Shown piece after piece: positions 13,440 through 40,501 of a DNA stretch of 64,000 nt. The DNA comes from Fimbriimonadales bacterium (GTDB taxonomy: Bacteria; Armatimonadota; Fimbriimonadia; Fimbriimonadales; Fimbriimonadaceae), in assembly GCA_038202925.1 (NCBI GenBank), contig JBBREM010000001.1, positions 3,509-67,508 on the forward strand. The letters run 5' to 3'. Below the pieces are notes generated by a model. The model was not told where the DNA came from. It was given only the letters and a program-made list of their open reading frames with translations, and searched no databases. Each line of letters starts with the position of its first letter. Positions within the stretch are counted from its first letter, which is position 1. Position numbers and translations under genes: made by a program.

Positions 13440-13516
13440 GGCGGATATAGCTCAGGGGTTAGAGCGCCTGACTGTGGCTCAGGAGGTCGTGGGTTCAAGA
13501 CCCATTATCCGCCCCA
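13440..13516 (+). tRNA. tRNA-His (anticodon GTG)
   Basis: Manual cloverleaf: encoded G-1, acceptor GCGGATA/TATCCGC, anticodon arm CCTGA-CTGTGGC-TCAGG, T arm GTGGG-TTCAAGA-CCCAT, discriminator C, encoded CCA. Confidence 0.9.
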
Positions 13517-15451: not shown

Positions 15452-15542
15452 TGGCGGAGAGATCGGGATTCGAACCCGAGAAGAGGTTAACCCCCTTACC
15501 CACTTAGCAGGCGGGCGCTTTCGTCCACTCAGCCATCTCTCC
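15452..15542 (-). tRNA. tRNA-Ser (anticodon GCT)
   Basis: On the minus strand: GGAGAGA acceptor, anticodon arm CCCGC-CTGCTAA-GTGGG, long variable arm, T arm CGGGTTCGAATCCCG, encoded CCA. Confidence 0.9.
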
Positions 15543-32456: not shown

Positions 32457-32532
32457 GGGGGTGTAGCTCAGCTGGGAGAGCGCTGCAATCGCACTGCAGA
32501 GGTCGTGAGTTCGAATCTCATCATCTCCACCA
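32457..32532 (+). tRNA. tRNA-Ala (anticodon CGC)
   Basis: Manual cloverleaf: acceptor GGGGGTG/CATCTCC with G3:U70, D arm GCTC-AGCTGGGA-GAGC, anticodon arm CTGCA-ATCGCAC-TGCAG, T arm GTGAG-TTCGAAT-CTCAT, encoded CCA. Confidence 0.9.
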
Positions 32533-32566: not shown

Positions 32567-33346
32567 TTATTCGACTTCATGACCAGATTCTGAGGTTTTC
32601 GCGGGCTTTTCAAGCATCCGTTGTGACGGTTCGGACCGGATGTGGTGCCTCATTTTCGCCAGCTCATCGATGCTGAGACGGCCGGTGTAGGCAGCCATGC
32701 CCAAGGCGACGTCGATATCTGAATCGAGAAGGGTTTGGACCTCATTCATCGTCGTGATCCCCCCGGCGGCGACAAGCGTGCGCCGAGTCAGACTTCGCAA
32801 GTTGAGAAACAGTGGAAGATCCGTGCCTGCGAGCATGCCCTCCCGGTCGACGTTCGTGCACAAAAATCCAGCGCAGTATGGTTCGACCTCCACAATGACT
32901 TCGCTGGGATGCAAGCTCAATGTCGCTCTCCAACCCCTGATGGCCAAGCAGTCTCCCTTTATATCGATTGCGACGACTACCCGCTCGGGGCCGATTCGCT
33001 GCGCGAGCCCTTCCAGAAATCCGTGATCGACACCGGTGGAGGTGAAGGCGGAAGTGCCGACAATGACCTGCTCTGCTCCGAGATCGAGAAGCTTGACGGC
33101 GCGTTCGATGGAGCGAACGCCTCCACCCGCACGAGCCCGAATTTGGCCCAGCAACACCCCGACCAACTGTTGGTTGGGCGGCCTTCCGAGCGCCGCATCC
33201 AGATCGATGACGTGCAGGAGAGGGAACTCCGCAAACATGGCTAGCGCTTCGGAAGCATTCTCGAGCTCAAGGGCTTTGCGCTCGCCGCGCACGAGCTGCA
33301 CTACTTTGCCATCCATGACGTCGATGCACGGGATGACCCGGCTCAT
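32567..33346 (-). CDS. hisA: ProFAR isomerase HisA
   Basis: [20 protein letters not shown]-terminus and (beta/alpha)8 HisA/HisF fold motifs. Last gene of the his cluster, with a C-terminal tail of about 20 aa. Confidence 0.8.
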
Positions 33347-34095
33347 CGAACCGGCACCCCCGCTTGGATGAGCGATTCTTTGACTGCAGCAATCGAGGAC
33401 GTTTTGTAGTGGAAAATCGAGGCCGCCAGAGCAGCGTCGGCTTCGGCCTTCTGGAATACGTCCACGAAATGCTGCGGCTCGCCCGCGCCCCCCGAGGCGA
33501 TTACCGGAACGCCAACCGCATCCGATACGGCCCTCGTCAGGTCGATATCGAAGCCCTGGCGCGCTCCGTCCGCATCCATGCTGGTGAGGAGGATTTCACC
33601 GCAACCGCGGCGTTCGCCCTCGCGAACCCATGCGATAGCATCCAAATTTGTGGGCACCTTCCCACCATTGACGTGAACGACCGAGCGCCCGCCGATTTGC
33701 TTGACGTCCACCGCCAGCACCACGGCTTGACAGCCGAAGGCAGCGGCCAACTCGGTGATCAAGTCCGGGCGCCGGACCGCCGCGCTGTTCACCGCCACCT
33801 TGTCCGCGCCTGCGTGCAGGAGGCGAGCGGCGTCATCGACGCTGCCGATGCCTCCGCCGACCGTGAGCGGCACGAATACGCGTCGAGCGGTTCGTTCGAC
33901 CAGGCTCGCGAGAGTGGCGCGACCTTCCTGAGTCGCCGTGATATCGAGAAACACGATTTCATCTGCGCCTTCGACGCTATAACGTTGAGCCAGCTCGACC
34001 GGATCTCCGGCATCGCTCAGATTCAGGAACTGCACGCCTTTTACCACTCTGCCTTCGGCAACGTCCAGACACGCAATCACCCGTTTCTTCAGCAC
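33343..34095 (-). CDS. hisF: imidazole glycerol phosphate synthase cyclase subunit HisF
   Basis: [19 protein letters not shown]...PLTVGGGI...SGGAG motifs. GTG 34095 gives 250 aa. The ORF-track N-terminal extension overlaps hisH. Confidence 0.9.
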
Positions 34096-34661
34096 GACCG
34101 GCACCAATCGTTGAGAAGGTCCAGCCCAGGGGGTCCCGACTTTTCCGGGTGGAACTGAAAACCGGCGATATTGTCCCGCATTATCGCAGCGGTGAAGTCT
34201 CGTCCGTAATGCGCGGTAGCGCTCGTCCACTCGCCGACGGGTGCATAAAAGCTGTTGGCAAAGTAGAAAGATTCGCACGTGCCATCTCGGAATTGCACAT
34301 CGTTCCAGCCCATGTGCGGCACCCGTGGAACGCCGGAAAAGCGCAGCACCGCTCCTGGGAGCAGGCCGAGGCCCTGTAAGTCGGGAGCCTCCTCGCTCGT
34401 CTCGAAAAGTGCCTGCATCCCCAGGCAGATTCCGAGCAGCGGAACGCCCTCCGCGGCCCGATCCCTGAGCCACGAAACCAGCCCGCGCTCCTCCAAGCGG
34501 CCCATCATTTGCCCGAAGTGGCCGACCCCGGGGAGCAGAATCGCGTCCGTTCCGTCCATATCGCGTGGGCTCGCTCCCAGCTTGTACTTGCGCCCAAGGT
34601 GGTCGAGCGCATTGCAAACGGAGCGCAAGTTTCCTGCGCCGTAGTCGACCAAACCGATCAT
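34089..34661 (-). CDS. hisH: imidazole glycerol phosphate synthase glutaminase subunit HisH
   Basis: [22 protein letters not shown] (catalytic Cys) and [11 protein letters not shown] 34661 overlaps the hisB stop (ATGA). Confidence 0.9.
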
Positions 34662-35245
34662 AGGAGCCCTTTGGTCGAAGGAAGCAAGTCCTTCAACCGG
34701 CCATTGGTAGAACAAGCGTATGCCAAAGCCCGCCCGAAACCCTTGAAAATTGCCTCCACCTTGTGGTGGCTGGAGCGGCCGTACATCACCTTAACGTGCA
34801 CATTCGCCTTCGCGGCCCTGGCAAAGGCCTCGAAGAAGTCGGGAAGCAGTTCGACAGTGAGTCCGCCGAGTTGCTTGATGCGCACTAAGTCAGAATAGAC
34901 GCAGGAAGCTCGCCCACCGAGGTCGATTGCAACCACGGCGAGGGCCTCGTCCATCGGTTGAACGAAGTATCCAGCCCGATTGATTCCAAGCCGTGCCCCG
35001 AGCGCTTGTGAGAAGAGCTCGCCAAGAACGATCCCGACGTCCTCGACCGTATGATGCTGATCCACGCGCAAGTCGCCTGCTGCCTCGATTTGGAGGTCAA
35101 AACCTCCATGCTTGGCGAATAGCTGCAGCATGTGATCGAGAAAGCCGACTCCGGTGGAGATCGCGTATTGGCCGGTCCCCTCGATATTGAGGCTGCCCCG
35201 GATCCGCGTCTCGCTCGTGTCGCGTTGGATTGCAGACTCTCTCAC
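34658..35245 (-). CDS. hisB: imidazoleglycerol-phosphate dehydratase HisB
   Basis: [15 protein letters not shown] and [11 protein letters not shown] motifs; 195 aa (dehydratase only). Confidence 0.9.
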
Positions 35246-36294
35246 TTTTCGTACATCTCCCGCAGGATGTTGATGAATGCCATGATTCGCTCGGGCGGCC
35301 CAGCAGTTACGCGGAGCGCTCCCGCCAATTCATGGCGGCGGTCGCGAATGAGAATGTCGGCCGCGCGGCAGCGCGCAAGGCACTCGTCTGCATGTTCCTT
35401 TGCATCAAAGAGCACGAAATTGCCGGCGGACGGCCAGTGCCGCACGCTCAAGCTCATGAACGCGTCCTCAATAAGCTTGCGCCCCGCCAAGGTTTCAGCC
35501 ACGTACCGCTGCGTGTAGGCGGGATCTCCGATCGCGGCAATGGCAGCCATGGCCGCCAGCATGTTCACGCTGTAAGGGGATTGAGCTTTTGCGAGGTGCG
35601 CGGCGTTTCGCTCGCACGTCATCAAGGATCCGACCCTCATCGCTGCCATACCGTAGGCTTTGCTGAACGTGCGGCAGACGAATAAGTTCTGGAAGTCACG
35701 AATGAAGCCGATCATCGTCTCGCCGTAGAACTCGTAGTAGGCTTCGTCGACAAGAACGCACGCTTGCGGCGCCGCCTGCAGAACCGCGCGGAGATCGCTT
35801 TGCGAGATCGTGCTGCCGGTTGGATTGTTCGGATTCGAGAGCAGGATGGCTTTCGTCTGCGCAGTGACAGCACTGAGCACGCAGTCCAAGTCAAAGCCGA
35901 AGTCCGCCTCACGCCAAGGAACTTCCACCACCCTCGCGTCTGCCAGTTCGGCATAGAAGCGGTACATGGCGTAGCTCGGCGTGAGCACGATCACCTCGTC
36001 GTGAGGCTCGACGAAGGTGTTGATCAGCAACTGAATCGCTTCATCTGTTCCGTTCGTCAAAAGGAGCTCGCCGCCTGAGACCCCGAAGAACTCAGCGAGC
36101 TGTTCCCTCACGCTGACGTAGTTCGGGTACGTGGCAAGCAACTCCGGCCCGATCGCCTGCCGCAGAAACTCGGATACTTTAGGCGAGGAGCCGGCCACAT
36201 TCTCGTTGAAGTCCAGACGCAGCTTGCCGAGTCGCCCGGAAGTTGGAGGCGTGTAAGCACGCATGTTCGCAACGGCGCTTCTCGGTTCAGGCAT
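35242..36294 (-). CDS. hisC: histidinol-phosphate aminotransferase HisC
   Basis: Class II aminotransferase with NPNNPTG and the [17 protein letters not shown]-lysine motif. Confidence 0.9.
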
Positions 36295-37549
36295 TTAAAA
36301 TCGCCTCCTGCTGACGGATTTCGATGCTCCGCGCATGCCCCTCGAGCCCTTCCGACCGCGCCAGCGATGTGGCGACGGGAGCGATCGCAATCAGCGCCAT
36401 CGGCGTCAGCTCTTGGGTAGTTATCACCTTGAGAAAATGCGAAACCGAAAGCCCGCCGGTGGACCGCGCAGCCCCTCCCGTCGGCAGTACATGGTTCGGC
36501 CCCGTCGCATAGTCCCCTGCCGCTTCGGGGCTGAACTCGCCGATAAATACGCTTCCGGCATGGCGTACAAGCGGCAACAGCGCCGGATCGTGAAGACACA
36601 GGTGCTCGGGCGCAATCCAATTCGCCAGATCCATCGACTCTTGATCGCTGCCGGTGACGATCACCGCGCTATTCGCGCCGATCGATTGTGCTGCGACCTC
36701 TCCCGTCGGCAAGCTCGCCAATTGACGATCGACCTCCCCCACCACTGCCTCCGCCAACTTACGCGAGCTAGTTACGAACAGCGCCGCCGCGTCCGTATCG
36801 TGCTCCGCCTGCGCAAGCATGTCCGCGGCAATCCAAGCGGCATTCCCCTCGTTGGCGACGACCAGAACCTCCGTCGGTCCGGCAACGAAGTCAATTCCTA
36901 CCTCGCCGGCAAGCAGCTTTTTCGCCGCGGCAACGTAGATGTTTCCCGGCCCCACGATTCGGTCGGCGCGGGGGATCGTCTGGGTCCCGAAAGCGAACGC
37001 GGCTATCGCCTGAGCGCCTCCCAACAGGGCCACGTTTATTACTCCCGCAATCGCCGCCGCCGCAAGCGTCTCGTCGCTCACCCTGGGCGTCGTTATCCAA
37101 ATGTTGGGCACTTGCGCAACGGTCGCTGGCACAGCCGTCATCAAAACCGTTGACGGAAGCGGGTAGCGCCCACCAGGAACGTAAGCAGCCACCGTGTCCA
37201 GCGGGCGCACAATCTGTCCCACGGTGTGCCCCGGGGCTAATTTCACCGTGAATTCCTTCGGCATTTGTAGCCGGGCAAACGCCTCGATCTTCGCCTTCGA
37301 GAACTCCATCGCATGCCGGAGATCGGCACTGATATTCCCTGCGGCTGCGGCTACCTTCTTGCGATCGACAACGAACGGCCCCGAGTGGCCGTCGAGTCGC
37401 TTCGCGTACTCCGCCAGCGCCGCATCGCCGCGTGCGGATACCGCATCTAGTATGGGCCCGACGGTGTCGATTGCCTCCGTCATTCTCCTGTTTCTGCCTT
37501 GGAGGAACGGCCTCGCCTCCGCTTCGATCAGGCTTCGTAATGAGCTCAT
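36287..37549 (-). CDS. hisD: histidinol dehydrogenase HisD
   Basis: 420 aa with motifs [18 protein letters not shown] and PEHL. Confidence 0.9.
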
Positions 37550-38415
37550 AGGACGATCTTGTTCAGCGGATACTCCACGATCCCTTGCGCCCCGGCTCCC
37601 TTCAGCCGCGGAATGATGCTTCGAACCATTGATTCCTCAAGGATTGTGTTGATCGCCAGCCACTCGCCGCCGCTCAGAGAGGAAATCGTCGGATGCTTCA
37701 AGGCGGGCAGGACCTCGAGGACCCCCGGCAGATTCCGTTGCTCGACGTTCAACATGAGGCCCACTTTGCCAATGGCTTCGATTGCCCCGGACAGCATCAC
37801 CCTGATATCGTCGAGCTTCTGACGCTTCCACTCATCCCGAATGGAATCGTTGTTCACGATGAGCTGCGTATTGGATTCCAGTACCGTGTCCACGATGCGG
37901 AGCTGGTTGGCTCTCAAAGAAGATCCCGTTTCGGTGACCTCGACGATCGCGTCGGCGAGCACGGGGGGCTTGACCTCAGTAGCACCCCAGGAGAACTCGA
38001 CCCGGGCTGAAACTCCGTTACTCTGGAGATATCGCTGGGTGGCTCCGACCAGTTCGGTCGCAATGGTTTTGCCTTGGAGATCGCATACATGCTGGACGTG
38101 GGAATTCTCCGGAACGGCAAGCACCCATCGCACCTTTCCGAAGCTCTTGCTGGCATAGATCAGATCGGCGATCGACACGACGTTCGCATCCGACTCGGCC
38201 ACCCAATCTGATCCGGTCAGTCCCGCATCGAGAACGCCGTTCTCCACGTAGCGGGCGATCTCCTGGGCGCGGATGAGCATGCATTCGATCTCTGGGTCGT
38301 CGATCGTTGGGAAATACGAGCGGCTGCCGATCACGATGTTGTAGCCTGCGCGTCGAAATAGATCGACGGTTGCGCCCTCCAGGGAGCCCTTCGGGATACC
38401 GAGCTTCAGCGTCAT
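37546..38415 (-). CDS. hisG: ATP phosphoribosyltransferase (long form) HisG
   Basis: [13 protein letters not shown]...DAGLTGSDW plus a C-terminal regulatory domain. ATG 38415 overlaps the hisI stop (ATGA). The ORF-track extension is antisense shadow over hisI. Confidence 0.9.
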
Positions 38416-38783
38416 GGGTAAACCTCGTCCGGATCGAAAGTCTTTTCGGCGGCGATGGTCCATTGGCCATTCTCGAGCTTCCTGAAGAAGCAGCTTCGAT
38501 AGCCCTCGTGGCATACTCCGGGCCCGATCGGATCGACCTTCAGGACAATCGCGTCTTGGTCGCAGTCGGTAAGAATCTCCCTGACCACGAGCTGATGTCC
38601 CGAGTCTTGACCCTTGAGCCACAATTTGCTTCTGCTGCGGCTCCAAAAGGTGGCAAACCCGGTCTCCACCGTGTGTTGCCACGCTTCCTCGTTCATGTAG
38701 GCCACCATCAAGACCTCGCCCGTCGCCGTATCCTGAGCGATCGCCGGGACCAGGCCGCCACCCTTGTTGAAGTCAATGTACAT
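38412..38783 (-). CDS. hisI: phosphoribosyl-AMP cyclohydrolase HisI (no HisE domain)
   Basis: [25 protein letters not shown]...[16 protein letters not shown]...[11 protein letters not shown]...[12 protein letters not shown] 38783 has AGGAGA 3 nt upstream. Confidence 0.9.
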
Positions 38784-38796
38784 AGTTCTCCTATAG

Positions 38797-38834
38797 CCAA
38801 ATAACAAAGAGCCCACCGCAGTTGCGGTGGGCTC
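38797..38834 (-). terminator. intrinsic terminator of the his leader (attenuator stem-loop)
   Basis: Minus strand: GAGCCCACCG-CAACTG-CGGTGGGCTC (10-bp GC-rich stem) followed by TTTGTTATTT, 14 nt before the hisI ATG. Confidence 0.7.
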
Positions 38835-38860
38835 AAGGTTGTGAATAGTCGATTAGGCTC

Positions 38861-38944
38861 TCAACACGGCGGCACCGCAGCTTTTGCTACGTGATGATGG
38901 TGATGCCGATCGTTGAAACCCAAAGCAGCCCTATTATGGCACAT
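38861..38944 (-). CDS. candidate his operon leader peptide (MCHNRAALGFNDRHHHHHVAKAAVPPC)
   Basis: 27-codon minus-strand ORF with five consecutive His codons (CAT CAC CAT CAT CAC, plus-strand 38891-38905), ending 26 nt before the terminator stem. The segment GCTGCGGTG inside it duplicates the terminator 3' arm and can pair with the 5' arm. Confidence 0.6.
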   Translation of the reverse strand: MCHNRAALGFNDRHHHHHVAKAAVPPC

Positions 38945-39277
38945 GTTGCTCGTGATCGCGCTGACCGTGATCGTACTTCGGCTTCCGCGAGGCGAAAGCC
39001 GCTTTAAGCGCGAATGGGTTTCCATCCACCGGCGACTTGTCGGGCCCCGCCGTGAATTACTGACAGTCAAAAGTCCGACAGCGGCCCAAGGATCATTCCC
39101 AGCCAACTCCATGCCTCACACCCATGGCCCTGATTTTGGTGCTCTTAGACCTAACCGGCTGGCGTGGAACGATCAGCGGGCCTTATGCACTTGGGTCGTG
39201 GGGTTGGATTTTTTGTCGATTGTGAGACCGAACCGGCCCACTGGAGTGGCAGCTGAGCTGCCAATAGGAGATTGTTC

Positions 39278-40501
39278 ATGGTTGTTAGCACTCGCTTTTA
39301 CGTCGGATCGGCGATTCTTGCCTTGGCCGTACCCGCCATTCTCATTGGAGTGGGTCGGTCCTCCGACCACGCGGACACGCCGGAGATCGCGGCGGCGCCG
39401 GGCCGGGATTTGACGGATGTTTATATCTTTCCGAGCCCGACCGATTCTTCGCGAGTTGTGCTTGCGATGAATGTTCACCCCCTGATCGGACCCGGCCAGG
39501 GCGGAAACGTCAGCTTCGATCCGAACGTGCTTTACCAATTCAAGATCGACAACAGCGGCGATTCCGTTGAAGATTTGGTCATTCAGGCGCGATTCGAGGG
39601 ACATGGACGACACCAGCGTGTGATCGTGACCGGACCGACCAGGCCGAAGCGGACAGACTCGATCAACAGCGTCGTCGACGGGCCGAGGGCGCGCGGCACG
39701 ATTAATCAGATTTTCTCCGGACACGACAAGATGCAAGTCTTCGCAGGCGCCCGGGAAGATTCGTTCTTCTTCGATCTCGAGCAGTTTTTCAACATCCTTC
39801 CGGATCGAGCGACTCCGCTGAATGGGATGCCGGTTGCCAACCCCAACGATCCGCAGCAGACGAGTTGGAGACCCGAGGGCGAGGCAGTGGACTTCCTATC
39901 GAACGGCGGCTACAACGTGCTCTCGATCGTGGTGGAGTTGCCGAAGAAGTCGTTGCGCAGAGGCCATGGCGAAAGCGTTATCGGTCTATGGGCGACGACC
40001 AACTACAACGTGTCGAACGAATCCGGCTCGGCCTTCCGGCAGGTGGACCGCTTGGCTCGGCCAGCGGTCAATGAGGTGTTTGCGACGGTGGCCAATAATC
40101 GCCACAAGGTGAACGACGAGACCCAGCCGAGCCAGGACTTCAGCGAGCTGGCGAACGACATTCAAGGCTTTATGACCTTCCCGGCGGGGCGCTCTCAGGC
40201 CATCACCAACGTTGTGAAAGCCGTGTTGGTGCCGGACGTTCTGAAGGCCAATCTCGACGGACACGGCGCGGCCTACCTCGGCTATGAGACTAACGGCGCA
40301 ACCGGCGGCACCTTCGGCGGGCGCGCGCTGAACGATGATGTCATCGATATCTCGCTCGGGATCATCTTCGGGAACACGGTGCCGGCTCTTGGGCTCGCGC
40401 CGGACGACGGTAAGGAGATTCCTTCGCTGACCAGCGACCACGTCGGTCCCGGCGGCAAGCACTTCACACCGCACTTCCCGTACCTAGGGTCGCCGCGATG
40501 A
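39278..40501 (+). CDS. DUF4331 domain protein (secreted)
   Basis: Signal peptide, then SDHADTPEIAAAPGRDLTDVYIFP, the hallmark DUF4331 N-terminal motif. ATG 39278 has AGGAG 7 nt upstream. Confidence 0.85.
   Translation: MVVSTRFYVGSAILALAVPAILIGVGRSSDHADTPEIAAAPGRDLTDVYIFPSPTDSSRVVLAMNVHPLIGPGQGGNVSFDPNVLYQFKIDNSGDSVEDLVIQARFEGHGRHQRVIVTGPTRPKRTDSINSVVDGPRARGTINQIFSGHDKMQVFAGAREDSFFFDLEQFFNILPDRATPLNGMPVANPNDPQQTSWRPEGEAVDFLSNGGYNVLSIVVELPKKSLRRGHGESVIGLWATTNYNVSNESGSAFRQVDRLARPAVNEVFATVANNRHKVNDETQPSQDFSELANDIQGFMTFPAGRSQAITNVVKAVLVPDVLKANLDGHGAAYLGYETNGATGGTFGGRALNDDVIDISLGIIFGNTVPALGLAPDDGKEIPSLTSDHVGPGGKHFTPHFPYLGSPR

Follow-up and report, generated by a model that had tools for sequence, protein, structure and literature searches.

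A predicted histidine-leader attenuator in front of the his operon of a Fimbriimonadales bacterium

Is the his operon of a Fimbriimonadales bacterium controlled by a leader peptide, as the his operon of enterobacteria is by hisL? The question is raised by a short region on the minus strand, directly upstream of hisI, in a 64,000-nucleotide (nt) stretch of DNA that we call the window (GenBank assembly GCA_038202925.1, contig JBBREM010000001.1, positions 3,509 to 67,508; all positions below are those of the window unless a relative is named). A first-pass annotation, made from the letters of the window, had proposed such a control region. Our results suggest that it was right. We put the probability at roughly 85% that the region is a ribosome-mediated (leader-peptide) transcription attenuator, in which the supply of charged tRNA-His determines how much transcription reads through into hisIGDCBHFA. 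What can be seen in silico are the elements themselves, their conservation, mutually exclusive pairings and a dependence of these pairings on the position of the ribosome. As a mechanism this is classical and quite ordinary; it is the lineage that is apparently new for it. The annotation had also judged that the host is not proteobacterial. This agrees with valyl-tRNA synthetase (ValRS), whose best named matches are from Fimbriimonadales/Fimbriimonadaceae, with 71% identity to Fimbriimonas ginsengisoli. Hence, the host is a member of the Armatimonadota.

The sensing part of the proposed attenuator is a short open reading frame (ORF). It had been described as 27 codons long, with five consecutive His codons, running from ATG 38944 to the stop codon TGA 38863-38861 on the minus strand (product MCHNRAALGFNDRHHHHHVAKAAVPPC). 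The ORF and the His run are present, but 27 codons is probably too long; the form that is conserved has 20 codons (Table 1). The tandem His codons are CATCACCATCATCAC, or CAT CAC CAT CAT CAC. No second (CAY)5 run exists on either strand of the 64-kb window, and none of 100 dinucleotide shuffles contains one. Cognate tandem codons, in a short ORF directly 5' of hisIGDCBHFA, are one of the features by which attenuators of this class are recognised.

A second such feature is an intrinsic terminator that separates the leader ORF from the first gene of the operon. Here, an inverted repeat begins 26 nt past the stop codon (GAGCCCACCGCA/TGCGGTGGGCTC; 12 nt, 100% complementary). It folds into a terminator hairpin of 11-12 base pairs (bp) with a fold energy of -23.8 kcal/mol, and the U-tract TTTGTTATTT (38808-38799) follows directly 3' of it. 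This is the sole terminator-like site within 38300-39700. The hairpin, its distance from the stop codon, the U-tract and the ribosome-binding site (RBS) and ATG of hisI all lie where the first-pass annotation had placed them.

The third feature is an antiterminator pairing that excludes the terminator. The sequence CTGCGGTG (8 nt) is present twice, once in the leader (38880-38873), 9-10 nt past the last His codon, and once in the 3' arm of the terminator (38821-38814). Segment 2, which contains the leader copy, is complementary at 9 of 10 positions (90%) to segment 3, that is, to the 5' arm of the terminator plus loop. Direct and inverted repeats thus bear out the earlier idea that a leader repeat of the terminator 3' arm can pair with CACCGCA. 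The antiterminator pairing is energetically weak in the window and strong in relatives. Segment 2 has yet another partner. The minimum free energy (MFE) fold of 38960-38784 contains a 1:2 stem (CGGC..CACC with GGUG..GCCG) together with the terminator (-65.6 kcal/mol, z = -3.46), and so reproduces the 1:2 structure that had been suggested. The 5' half of this hairpin (38921-38886) includes the His codons and the 3' half (38881-38856) includes segment 2.

Table 1. Positions of the leader elements and of the his operon in the window.
Feature	Position	Strand	Description or basis
Extended -10-like element, TGcCATAAT = TGCCATAAT	38933..38941	-	TG 38941-38940, hexamer CATAAT 38938-38933
Leader ORF, conserved form, 20 codons, MGFNDRHHHHHVAKAAVPPC	38861..38923	-	TTG 38923 to TGA 38863-38861
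1:2 "protector" hairpin	38856..38921	-	Covers nearly the whole leader ORF; MFE structure without ribosome
Run of five His codons	38891..38905	-	Proposed ribosome-stalling/sensing site; unique in window
Segment 2, AGCTGCGGTG	38873..38882	-	Upstream arm of antiterminator, copy of terminator 3' arm; direct and inverted repeat
Segment 3 core, CACCGCAACT	38820..38829	-	Common to antiterminator (with segment 2) and terminator (with segment 4)
Intrinsic terminator (hairpin 38834-38809 and U-tract)	38799..38834	-	Fold, inverted repeat, terminator scan
hisI RBS (AGGAG 38792-38788) and ATG (38783-38781)	38781..38792	-	Both outside the terminator hairpin
his operon, hisI-hisG (long form)-hisD-hisC-hisB-hisH-hisF-hisA	32567..38783	-	Pfam

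The same layout recurs in close relatives. We compared the window with six loci of the Fimbriimonadaceae type (L041, L081, L163, L164, L167 and L169) and with a partial seventh that is cut inside the leader (L166); their HisI proteins are 67-78% identical to that of the window, and those of all but L041 are 72-78% identical to it. The shared layout consists of a -10 box, TTG or GTG, R-HHHHH-V-A, GCTGCGG(T/G)G, GCCCACCGC-loop-GCGGTGGGC and the U-tract. The genes 5' of it vary between relatives (dtd, an aspartic-protease-like gene, a flavoprotein gene), and we therefore conclude that the conserved unit begins at the leader.

In an alignment of seven sequences (the window and the six complete relatives), 94.6% of the cells of the terminator helix are paired and four pairs have changed on both sides. 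The helices of the 1:2 hairpin are 76-91% paired, also with four pairs changed on both sides. For the whole terminator-state structure the values are 86.4% and eight, which compares with 34-48% and one to three both-side changes in a control in which the 3' partners were slid by 1-3 columns. The 7-bp core of the antiterminator (UGCGGUG with CACCGCA) is 95.9% paired and has one both-side change; sliding the 3' partners of the antiterminator structure in the same way leaves 29-67% paired and zero to one such change. The double change in the antiterminator core comes from L163 and turns U-A into G-C: a U to G in segment 2 is answered by A to C in segment 3, and by U to G in segment 4. In two other relatives, L164 (about 1455-1478 of that locus) and L041 (about 2941-2968), the terminator stem contains an A.G mismatch, and the 2:3 pairing that uses the same A is perfect. 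The 2:3 helix may thus be under selection no weaker than that on the terminator. The His run, the hairpin and compensatory stem changes are all kept in orthologous his upstream regions, as the annotation would have it. A box just 3' of segment 2 is kept in relatives as well (38852-38866, minus strand, TTGAGAAYCTAA). Two of its frames contain a stop codon (TGA and TAA/TAG), and the box doubles as the 3' base of the 1:2 hairpin. Its counterpart in L163 is a co-varying TTCAGAA, paired with TTTCTGAA.

A much larger set of related leaders is found in another phylum. A HisI scan of genomes gave at least 80 loci at 60-71% identity, and a scan of metagenomes gave at least 80 further loci of like kind. 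Among the genome-scan matches listed, nearly all come from metagenome-assembled genomes (MAGs) of Bryobacterales/Solibacteraceae (Acidobacteriota), plus one Fimbriimonadaceae MAG (L041). About 85% of the 160 listed hisI loci with enough upstream sequence carry a His-rich mini-ORF (4-8 His; consensus M..ARHHHHHHA.RRA.S*), which ends 60-120 nt 5' of hisI. In most of them a GC-rich hairpin and a U-tract follow, and at least 133 distinct loci have the terminator. The Bryobacterales segments differ slightly from those of the window (CCGUCGC, GCGACGGGC, GCCCGCCGC and GGCGGGC). They pair in 81% (1:2), 82.5% (2:3) and 97% (3:4) of cases, versus 29-50% when slid. RNAalifold, applied to an alignment of 104 Bryobacterales sequences, returned the terminator only (the equivalent helix is 96.9% paired), and we then scored the alternative helices explicitly. 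One position of segment 2, A or G, co-varies with both of its partners.

Do the two branches belong together? A covariance model (R1), for which only the seven Fimbriimonadaceae sequences were used, finds one forward-strand site in the window, at 139 bits; the one other match there, on the opposite strand, is to the palindromic stem of the terminator (25.7 bits, E=0.015). The same model also matches about 65 Bryobacterales leaders at the correct position (E = 2e-5 to 1). Hence, the two branches form one detectable family.

The relatives also bear on where the leader starts. ATG 38944-38942 flanks the -10-like box (joint stretch ATGTGCCATAAT), and an ORF that begins there overlaps the box. The equivalent of this ATG is out of the His frame in L081 and missing from L163, L164 and L169. 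An in-frame TTG or GTG stands at the equivalent position in all seven Fimbriimonadaceae-type loci, and is the sole possible in-frame start in three of them: L163 has an in-frame stop four codons 5' of its TTG, and in L081 and L169 the frame contains no start further upstream. We therefore reject ATG 38944 as the conserved start, although it may be used in this genome, and consider TTG 38923 most likely to be the start of the leader.

The distance from the -10-like box to the in-frame TTG is 9 nt in the Fimbriimonadaceae-type sequences, except for L081, where a GTG follows after 7 nt. At the equivalent site of the box, L081, L164, L167 and L169 have TGnCATAMT, L163 has TAATAT and L041 has TGtATGATC. 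The five loci with 9-nt spacing that we checked (the window, L163, L164, L167 and L169) all have a G 7 nt past the hexamer. The Bryobacterales-type consensus is similar: TGnTATACT, 8 nt, ATG (127 loci). There is no conserved Shine-Dalgarno sequence before the TTG/GTG of the seven, nor before the ATG of the 127 Bryobacterales loci. A -10 element at a fixed short spacing and no Shine-Dalgarno are what one would look for in a leaderless upstream ORF (uORF). Judging from its sequence, the box may well act as a promoter, and the leader transcript would then be leaderless or nearly so, with a predicted 5' leader of 0-3 nt. An earlier prediction for Acidobacteria put the share of leaderless genes at 10-19% and located a TANNNT box some 12 bp 5' of their start (PMC3160421). 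A UUG start is atypical for leaderless initiation, where AUG or GUG is expected.

One could argue that all of this is chance: a run of His codons that arose by accident beside a common terminator or insulator hairpin, or a piece of a longer gene. The frame of the leader is indeed open as far as ATG 39112, which would give a gene of 83 amino acids (aa; 39112-38861), and the antiterminator energy of the window is not clearly above that of shuffled sequences. A run of (CAY)5 is not expected by chance, however, and the layout recurs in more than 130 independent loci of two phyla. The upstream extension is not conserved (see the in-frame stop of L163 and the missing starts of L081 and L169), and the upstream neighbours differ between loci. 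Nor are the related loci assembly duplicates, with HisI identities of 60-78% and contigs from many samples. The comparative data effectively refute chance co-occurrence, which is the least credible of the explanations that we considered. The 83-aa ORF as a genuine gene we reject too; it has no Pfam match and its upstream part is not conserved. Like a 166-aa ORF on the plus strand (38913-39413), it overlaps the leader and the intergenic region. Both ORFs are probably spurious and could misguide gene callers.

If the region is an attenuator, the position of the ribosome should decide which helix forms. We folded a nascent transcript that ended at the terminator loop, with 28 nt masked as the assumed footprint of a ribosome. 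Without a ribosome, the 1:2 hairpin and the terminator form and segment 3 is free of upstream pairing. A ribosome whose A site is at His codons 2-4 lets segments 2 and 3 pair (the 2:3 antiterminator), and one whose A site is at the stop codon does not. For an energy test we masked all sequence 5' of the leading edge of the ribosome and calculated the net gain from upstream pairing of segment 3. Across all seven Fimbriimonadaceae-type sequences this gain is -6 to -17 kcal/mol for a ribosome on His codons 2-4 and -0.3 to -6 kcal/mol for a ribosome at the stop codon. For 133 loci, the medians are -11.7 kcal/mol (stalled), -5.2 (stop), -5.9 (no ribosome) and -6.6 (shuffled spacers), and in 61% of these loci at most one of 20 shuffles matches the real value. 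The codons are thus placed such that a stall frees segment 2 and the stop codon occludes it, in the window and six relatives individually and in the 133 loci statistically. The four-segment ribosome-stalling design that the first-pass annotation had recognised is conserved in relatives, and the masked folds go through the expected states.

The position of the stop codon relative to segment 2 differs: it precedes the segment in four relatives (L081, L163, L164 and L169) and follows it in L041, L167 and the window. Either way, a ribosome that terminates there overlaps segment 2. This variation also speaks to the idea that the product of the ORF matters more than its translation, namely that a small peptide made from the His-rich ORF is functional in itself (metal-binding or trans-acting, for example) and that the hairpin is merely its terminator. 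The His run and the adjoining R and V-A residues are conserved, and a trans-acting role has been reported for another leader peptide, peTrpL (PMC7298713). The shifting stop codon, in turn, yields peptides of 13-22 aa with differing C-termini, and the N-terminal residues vary as well; beyond the His run, what is conserved corresponds to the RNA pairings rather than to the peptide. The His-rich ORF is, moreover, invariably located immediately 5' of hisI, and its longer, 83-aa reading matches no Pfam family. A functional peptide therefore seems very unlikely to us as the explanation of this locus.

How would a leader-peptide attenuator work here? In the mechanism that we propose, the promoter and the transcription start site, the use of the TTG start, termination as such and the response to histidine are all predictions. 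Transcription from the -10-like box would probably begin a few nt before TTG 38923, and a ribosome would translate the 20-codon leader. When His-tRNA is plentiful, the ribosome would pass the five His codons, reach the TGA and cover segment 2 (AGCUGCGGUG). Segment 3 would then pair with segment 4, hairpin and U-tract would form, and RNA polymerase would terminate about 20 nt before hisI. When His-tRNA is scarce, a ribosome stalled on the His codons would melt the 1:2 hairpin and leave segment 2 exposed. Segment 2 could then take the CACCGCA of the terminator 5' arm before the 3' arm is transcribed, the terminator would be blocked and the operon transcribed. Without translation, the 1:2 hairpin would sequester segment 2, which would make termination the default.

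A number of points weigh against this interpretation. To begin with, the case is wholly computational, made from sequence and folding. The U-tract has an interruption (UUUGUUAUUU). The comparison of alternative-structure energies, which the annotation had named as a check, does reveal a ribosome-dependent switch, but the gain in the window itself is modest. Its antiterminator is the weakest of the seven, with a net -6 to -7 kcal/mol compared to -23.8 for the terminator, and 25 of 200 shuffles equal its antiterminator gain. If the 5' end is left unmasked, the window cannot be distinguished from shuffles at all (106 of 200). The Fimbriimonadaceae alignment contains only seven close relatives, which keeps the covariation counts low; in Bryobacterales, the sequences vary too little for many double changes to be seen. 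A UUG start with no Shine-Dalgarno and a predicted 5' leader of 0-3 nt has no established route of initiation. Lastly, about 15% of the listed related hisI loci have no His-rich ORF that a simple pattern would clearly pick up. The loci in question include L014, L021, L023, L029, L030, L032, L045 and L063, as well as L069, L079, L100, L126, L146, L157, L158 and L161. Several of them keep the terminator and match R1 weakly (e.g., L014, L021 and L023). Their His runs may be interrupted, or the leader may have been lost.

The weak antiterminator and the interrupted U-tract also speak for a variant of the mechanism, in which the leader and the sensing of His are the same and control is mainly exerted by Rho-dependent polarity once the ribosome has been released, or through the translation of hisI, by unmasking of its RBS as in mycobacteria. 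A precedent exists in a leaderless sensory uORF that acts on RBS sequestration (bioRxiv 10.1101/834739). In our case, the hisI RBS lies outside every predicted helix. Nearly all relatives combine a GC-rich hairpin with an immediate U-tract, and they do so even where the terminator is 80-90 nt away from hisI, as in L081 and L169. We think that such a variant is unlikely, albeit less so than a functional peptide, and that attenuation by the intrinsic terminator describes the locus better.

The closest known design is that of enterobacterial hisL. The enterobacterial his operon begins with hisG. There, too, a leader ORF with tandem His codons is combined with 1:2, 2:3 and 3:4 alternatives, the 3:4 hairpin is the terminator and a stall favours the antiterminator. 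The element in the window differs in having five His codons, compared to seven in hisL, a predicted UUG beside a -10 box with no Shine-Dalgarno, and a monofunctional hisI as the first gene; its host belongs to the Armatimonadota, with relatives in Acidobacteriota. It also shows no detectable match to hisL in sequence or structure. The Rfam model of the latter (His_leader, RF00514) has no match at gathering score in the window and none at E<=10 in 38700-39300. T-box and riboswitch models have no match either, in the whole-window scan or in the permissive scan of 38700-39300. At gathering score, the only Rfam matches of the whole window are three tRNAs. These scans rule out membership in the His_leader, T-box and riboswitch families. 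A weak full-length match to Thr_leader (RF00506) at 38924-38802 (25.8 bits, E=0.013, gathering score 55) reflects the common layout of a hairpin plus a terminator; the element in the window has regulatory His codons in place of Thr/Ile codons and precedes his genes.

How unusual is the element outside of the Proteobacteria, as the first-pass annotation supposed it to be? In a limited literature search, the coverage of which is incomplete so that absence is no proof, we found no description of such an element in Armatimonadota or Acidobacteriota. In this regard the supposition holds, but it has to be restricted: for Firmicutes, comparative genomics had predicted His leader peptides before, for hisZ/hisS paralogues in the Bacillus cereus group, and in Peptostreptococcaceae and Erysipelotrichales (PMC2965389, PMC9413887). 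Those systems resemble ours in that they have lineage-specific His leader ORFs (3-5 His in a row) and terminator/antiterminator hairpins, and are unrelated in sequence to RF00514. They belong to a different phylum and precede different genes, their sequence relationship to our element being judged by the absent Rfam match. A search for His leader peptides in Actinobacteria is cited in PMC4833913 (its ref. 18).

With respect to the start of the leader, the nearest parallel is found in mycobacteria, where polycysteine leaderless uORF attenuators are documented (bioRxiv 10.1101/834739). In these, as is predicted for the window, no ORF precedes the uORF on the transcript, a -10 box lies directly before the start and stalling on tandem cognate codons controls the operon. 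In contrast, the mycobacterial uORFs act on RBS sequestration and the window element has a canonical intrinsic terminator. The mycobacterial starts are 5'-AUG/GUG, whereas here a UUG lies about 9 nt past the -10 hexamer and would be leaderless only as far as the sequence can tell. Corynebacterium glutamicum has leader peptides in the 5'-UTRs (untranslated regions) of trpE, leuA, ilvB and aroF, which the cited text (PMC3890552) does not call leaderless.

The presence of related leaders in two phyla could have a simple cause. The HisI proteins of the loci L001-L162 are 60-71% identical to that of the window, and HisG has a median identity of about 75% (best high-scoring segment pair, HSP), which is unusually similar across phyla. 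The order hisI-hisG is common to 155 of the 162 listed loci. Together with the related leaders, this similarity and shared gene order suggest that the his operon and its leader were transferred between phyla. A stronger statement would be that Bryobacterales and Fimbriimonadaceae share an undescribed, sequence-coherent family of His leaders, with a leaderless or near-leaderless sensory ORF (in Fimbriimonadaceae a UUG 0-3 nt from the 5' end), which moved between the phyla together with hisI-hisG. For this statement as a whole we are tentative, and would rather bet against it than for it.

The operon downstream of the leader is identified by Pfam matches to PRA-CH, HisG and HisG_C, Histidinol_dh, Aminotran_1_2, IGPD, GATase and His_biosynth (twice). 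The hisI product has 123 aa and matches PRA-CH only (E=5e-32), consistent with its being monofunctional; an exact look-up of this protein found no record, although one identical to it is present in the protein collection (P0001), in a cluster that carries no name. The operon contains no hisE (PRA-PH). The listed hisF ORF has a long N-terminal extension (TTG 34617) that overlaps hisH and is probably artefactual. Upstream of the leader, the nearest credible gene encodes a divergent DUF4331 protein that starts near 39272 on the plus strand. There is no upstream gene on the same strand, and hence the hairpin terminates none. About 330 nt of intergenic DNA (38945-39271) separate the predicted leader promoter from the DUF4331 gene; in this interval we found no promoter-like match and Rfam matches at noise level only. 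A tRNA gene on the opposite (plus) strand, at 32457-32529, directly adjoins the his operon at its 3' end, and the other two tRNA genes of the window are at 13441-13513 (plus strand) and 15455-15542 (minus strand).

The mechanism itself is textbook knowledge and will not surprise specialists. The value of our study lies mainly in a family that is large and coherent across two phyla, and in the atypical UUG start beside a -10 box. For the his operon of two poorly studied soil phyla, it provides a regulatory annotation that is concrete and testable. The more than 130 members that we gathered are a ready seed for a new RNA family. Our finding also draws attention to small ORFs, among them the 83-aa ORF of the window, that are overlooked or wrongly extended in gene calling. 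If the near-leaderless UUG start is true, then these bacteria would offer a natural case in which the initiation of transcription and translation is coupled to attenuation without a Shine-Dalgarno sequence.

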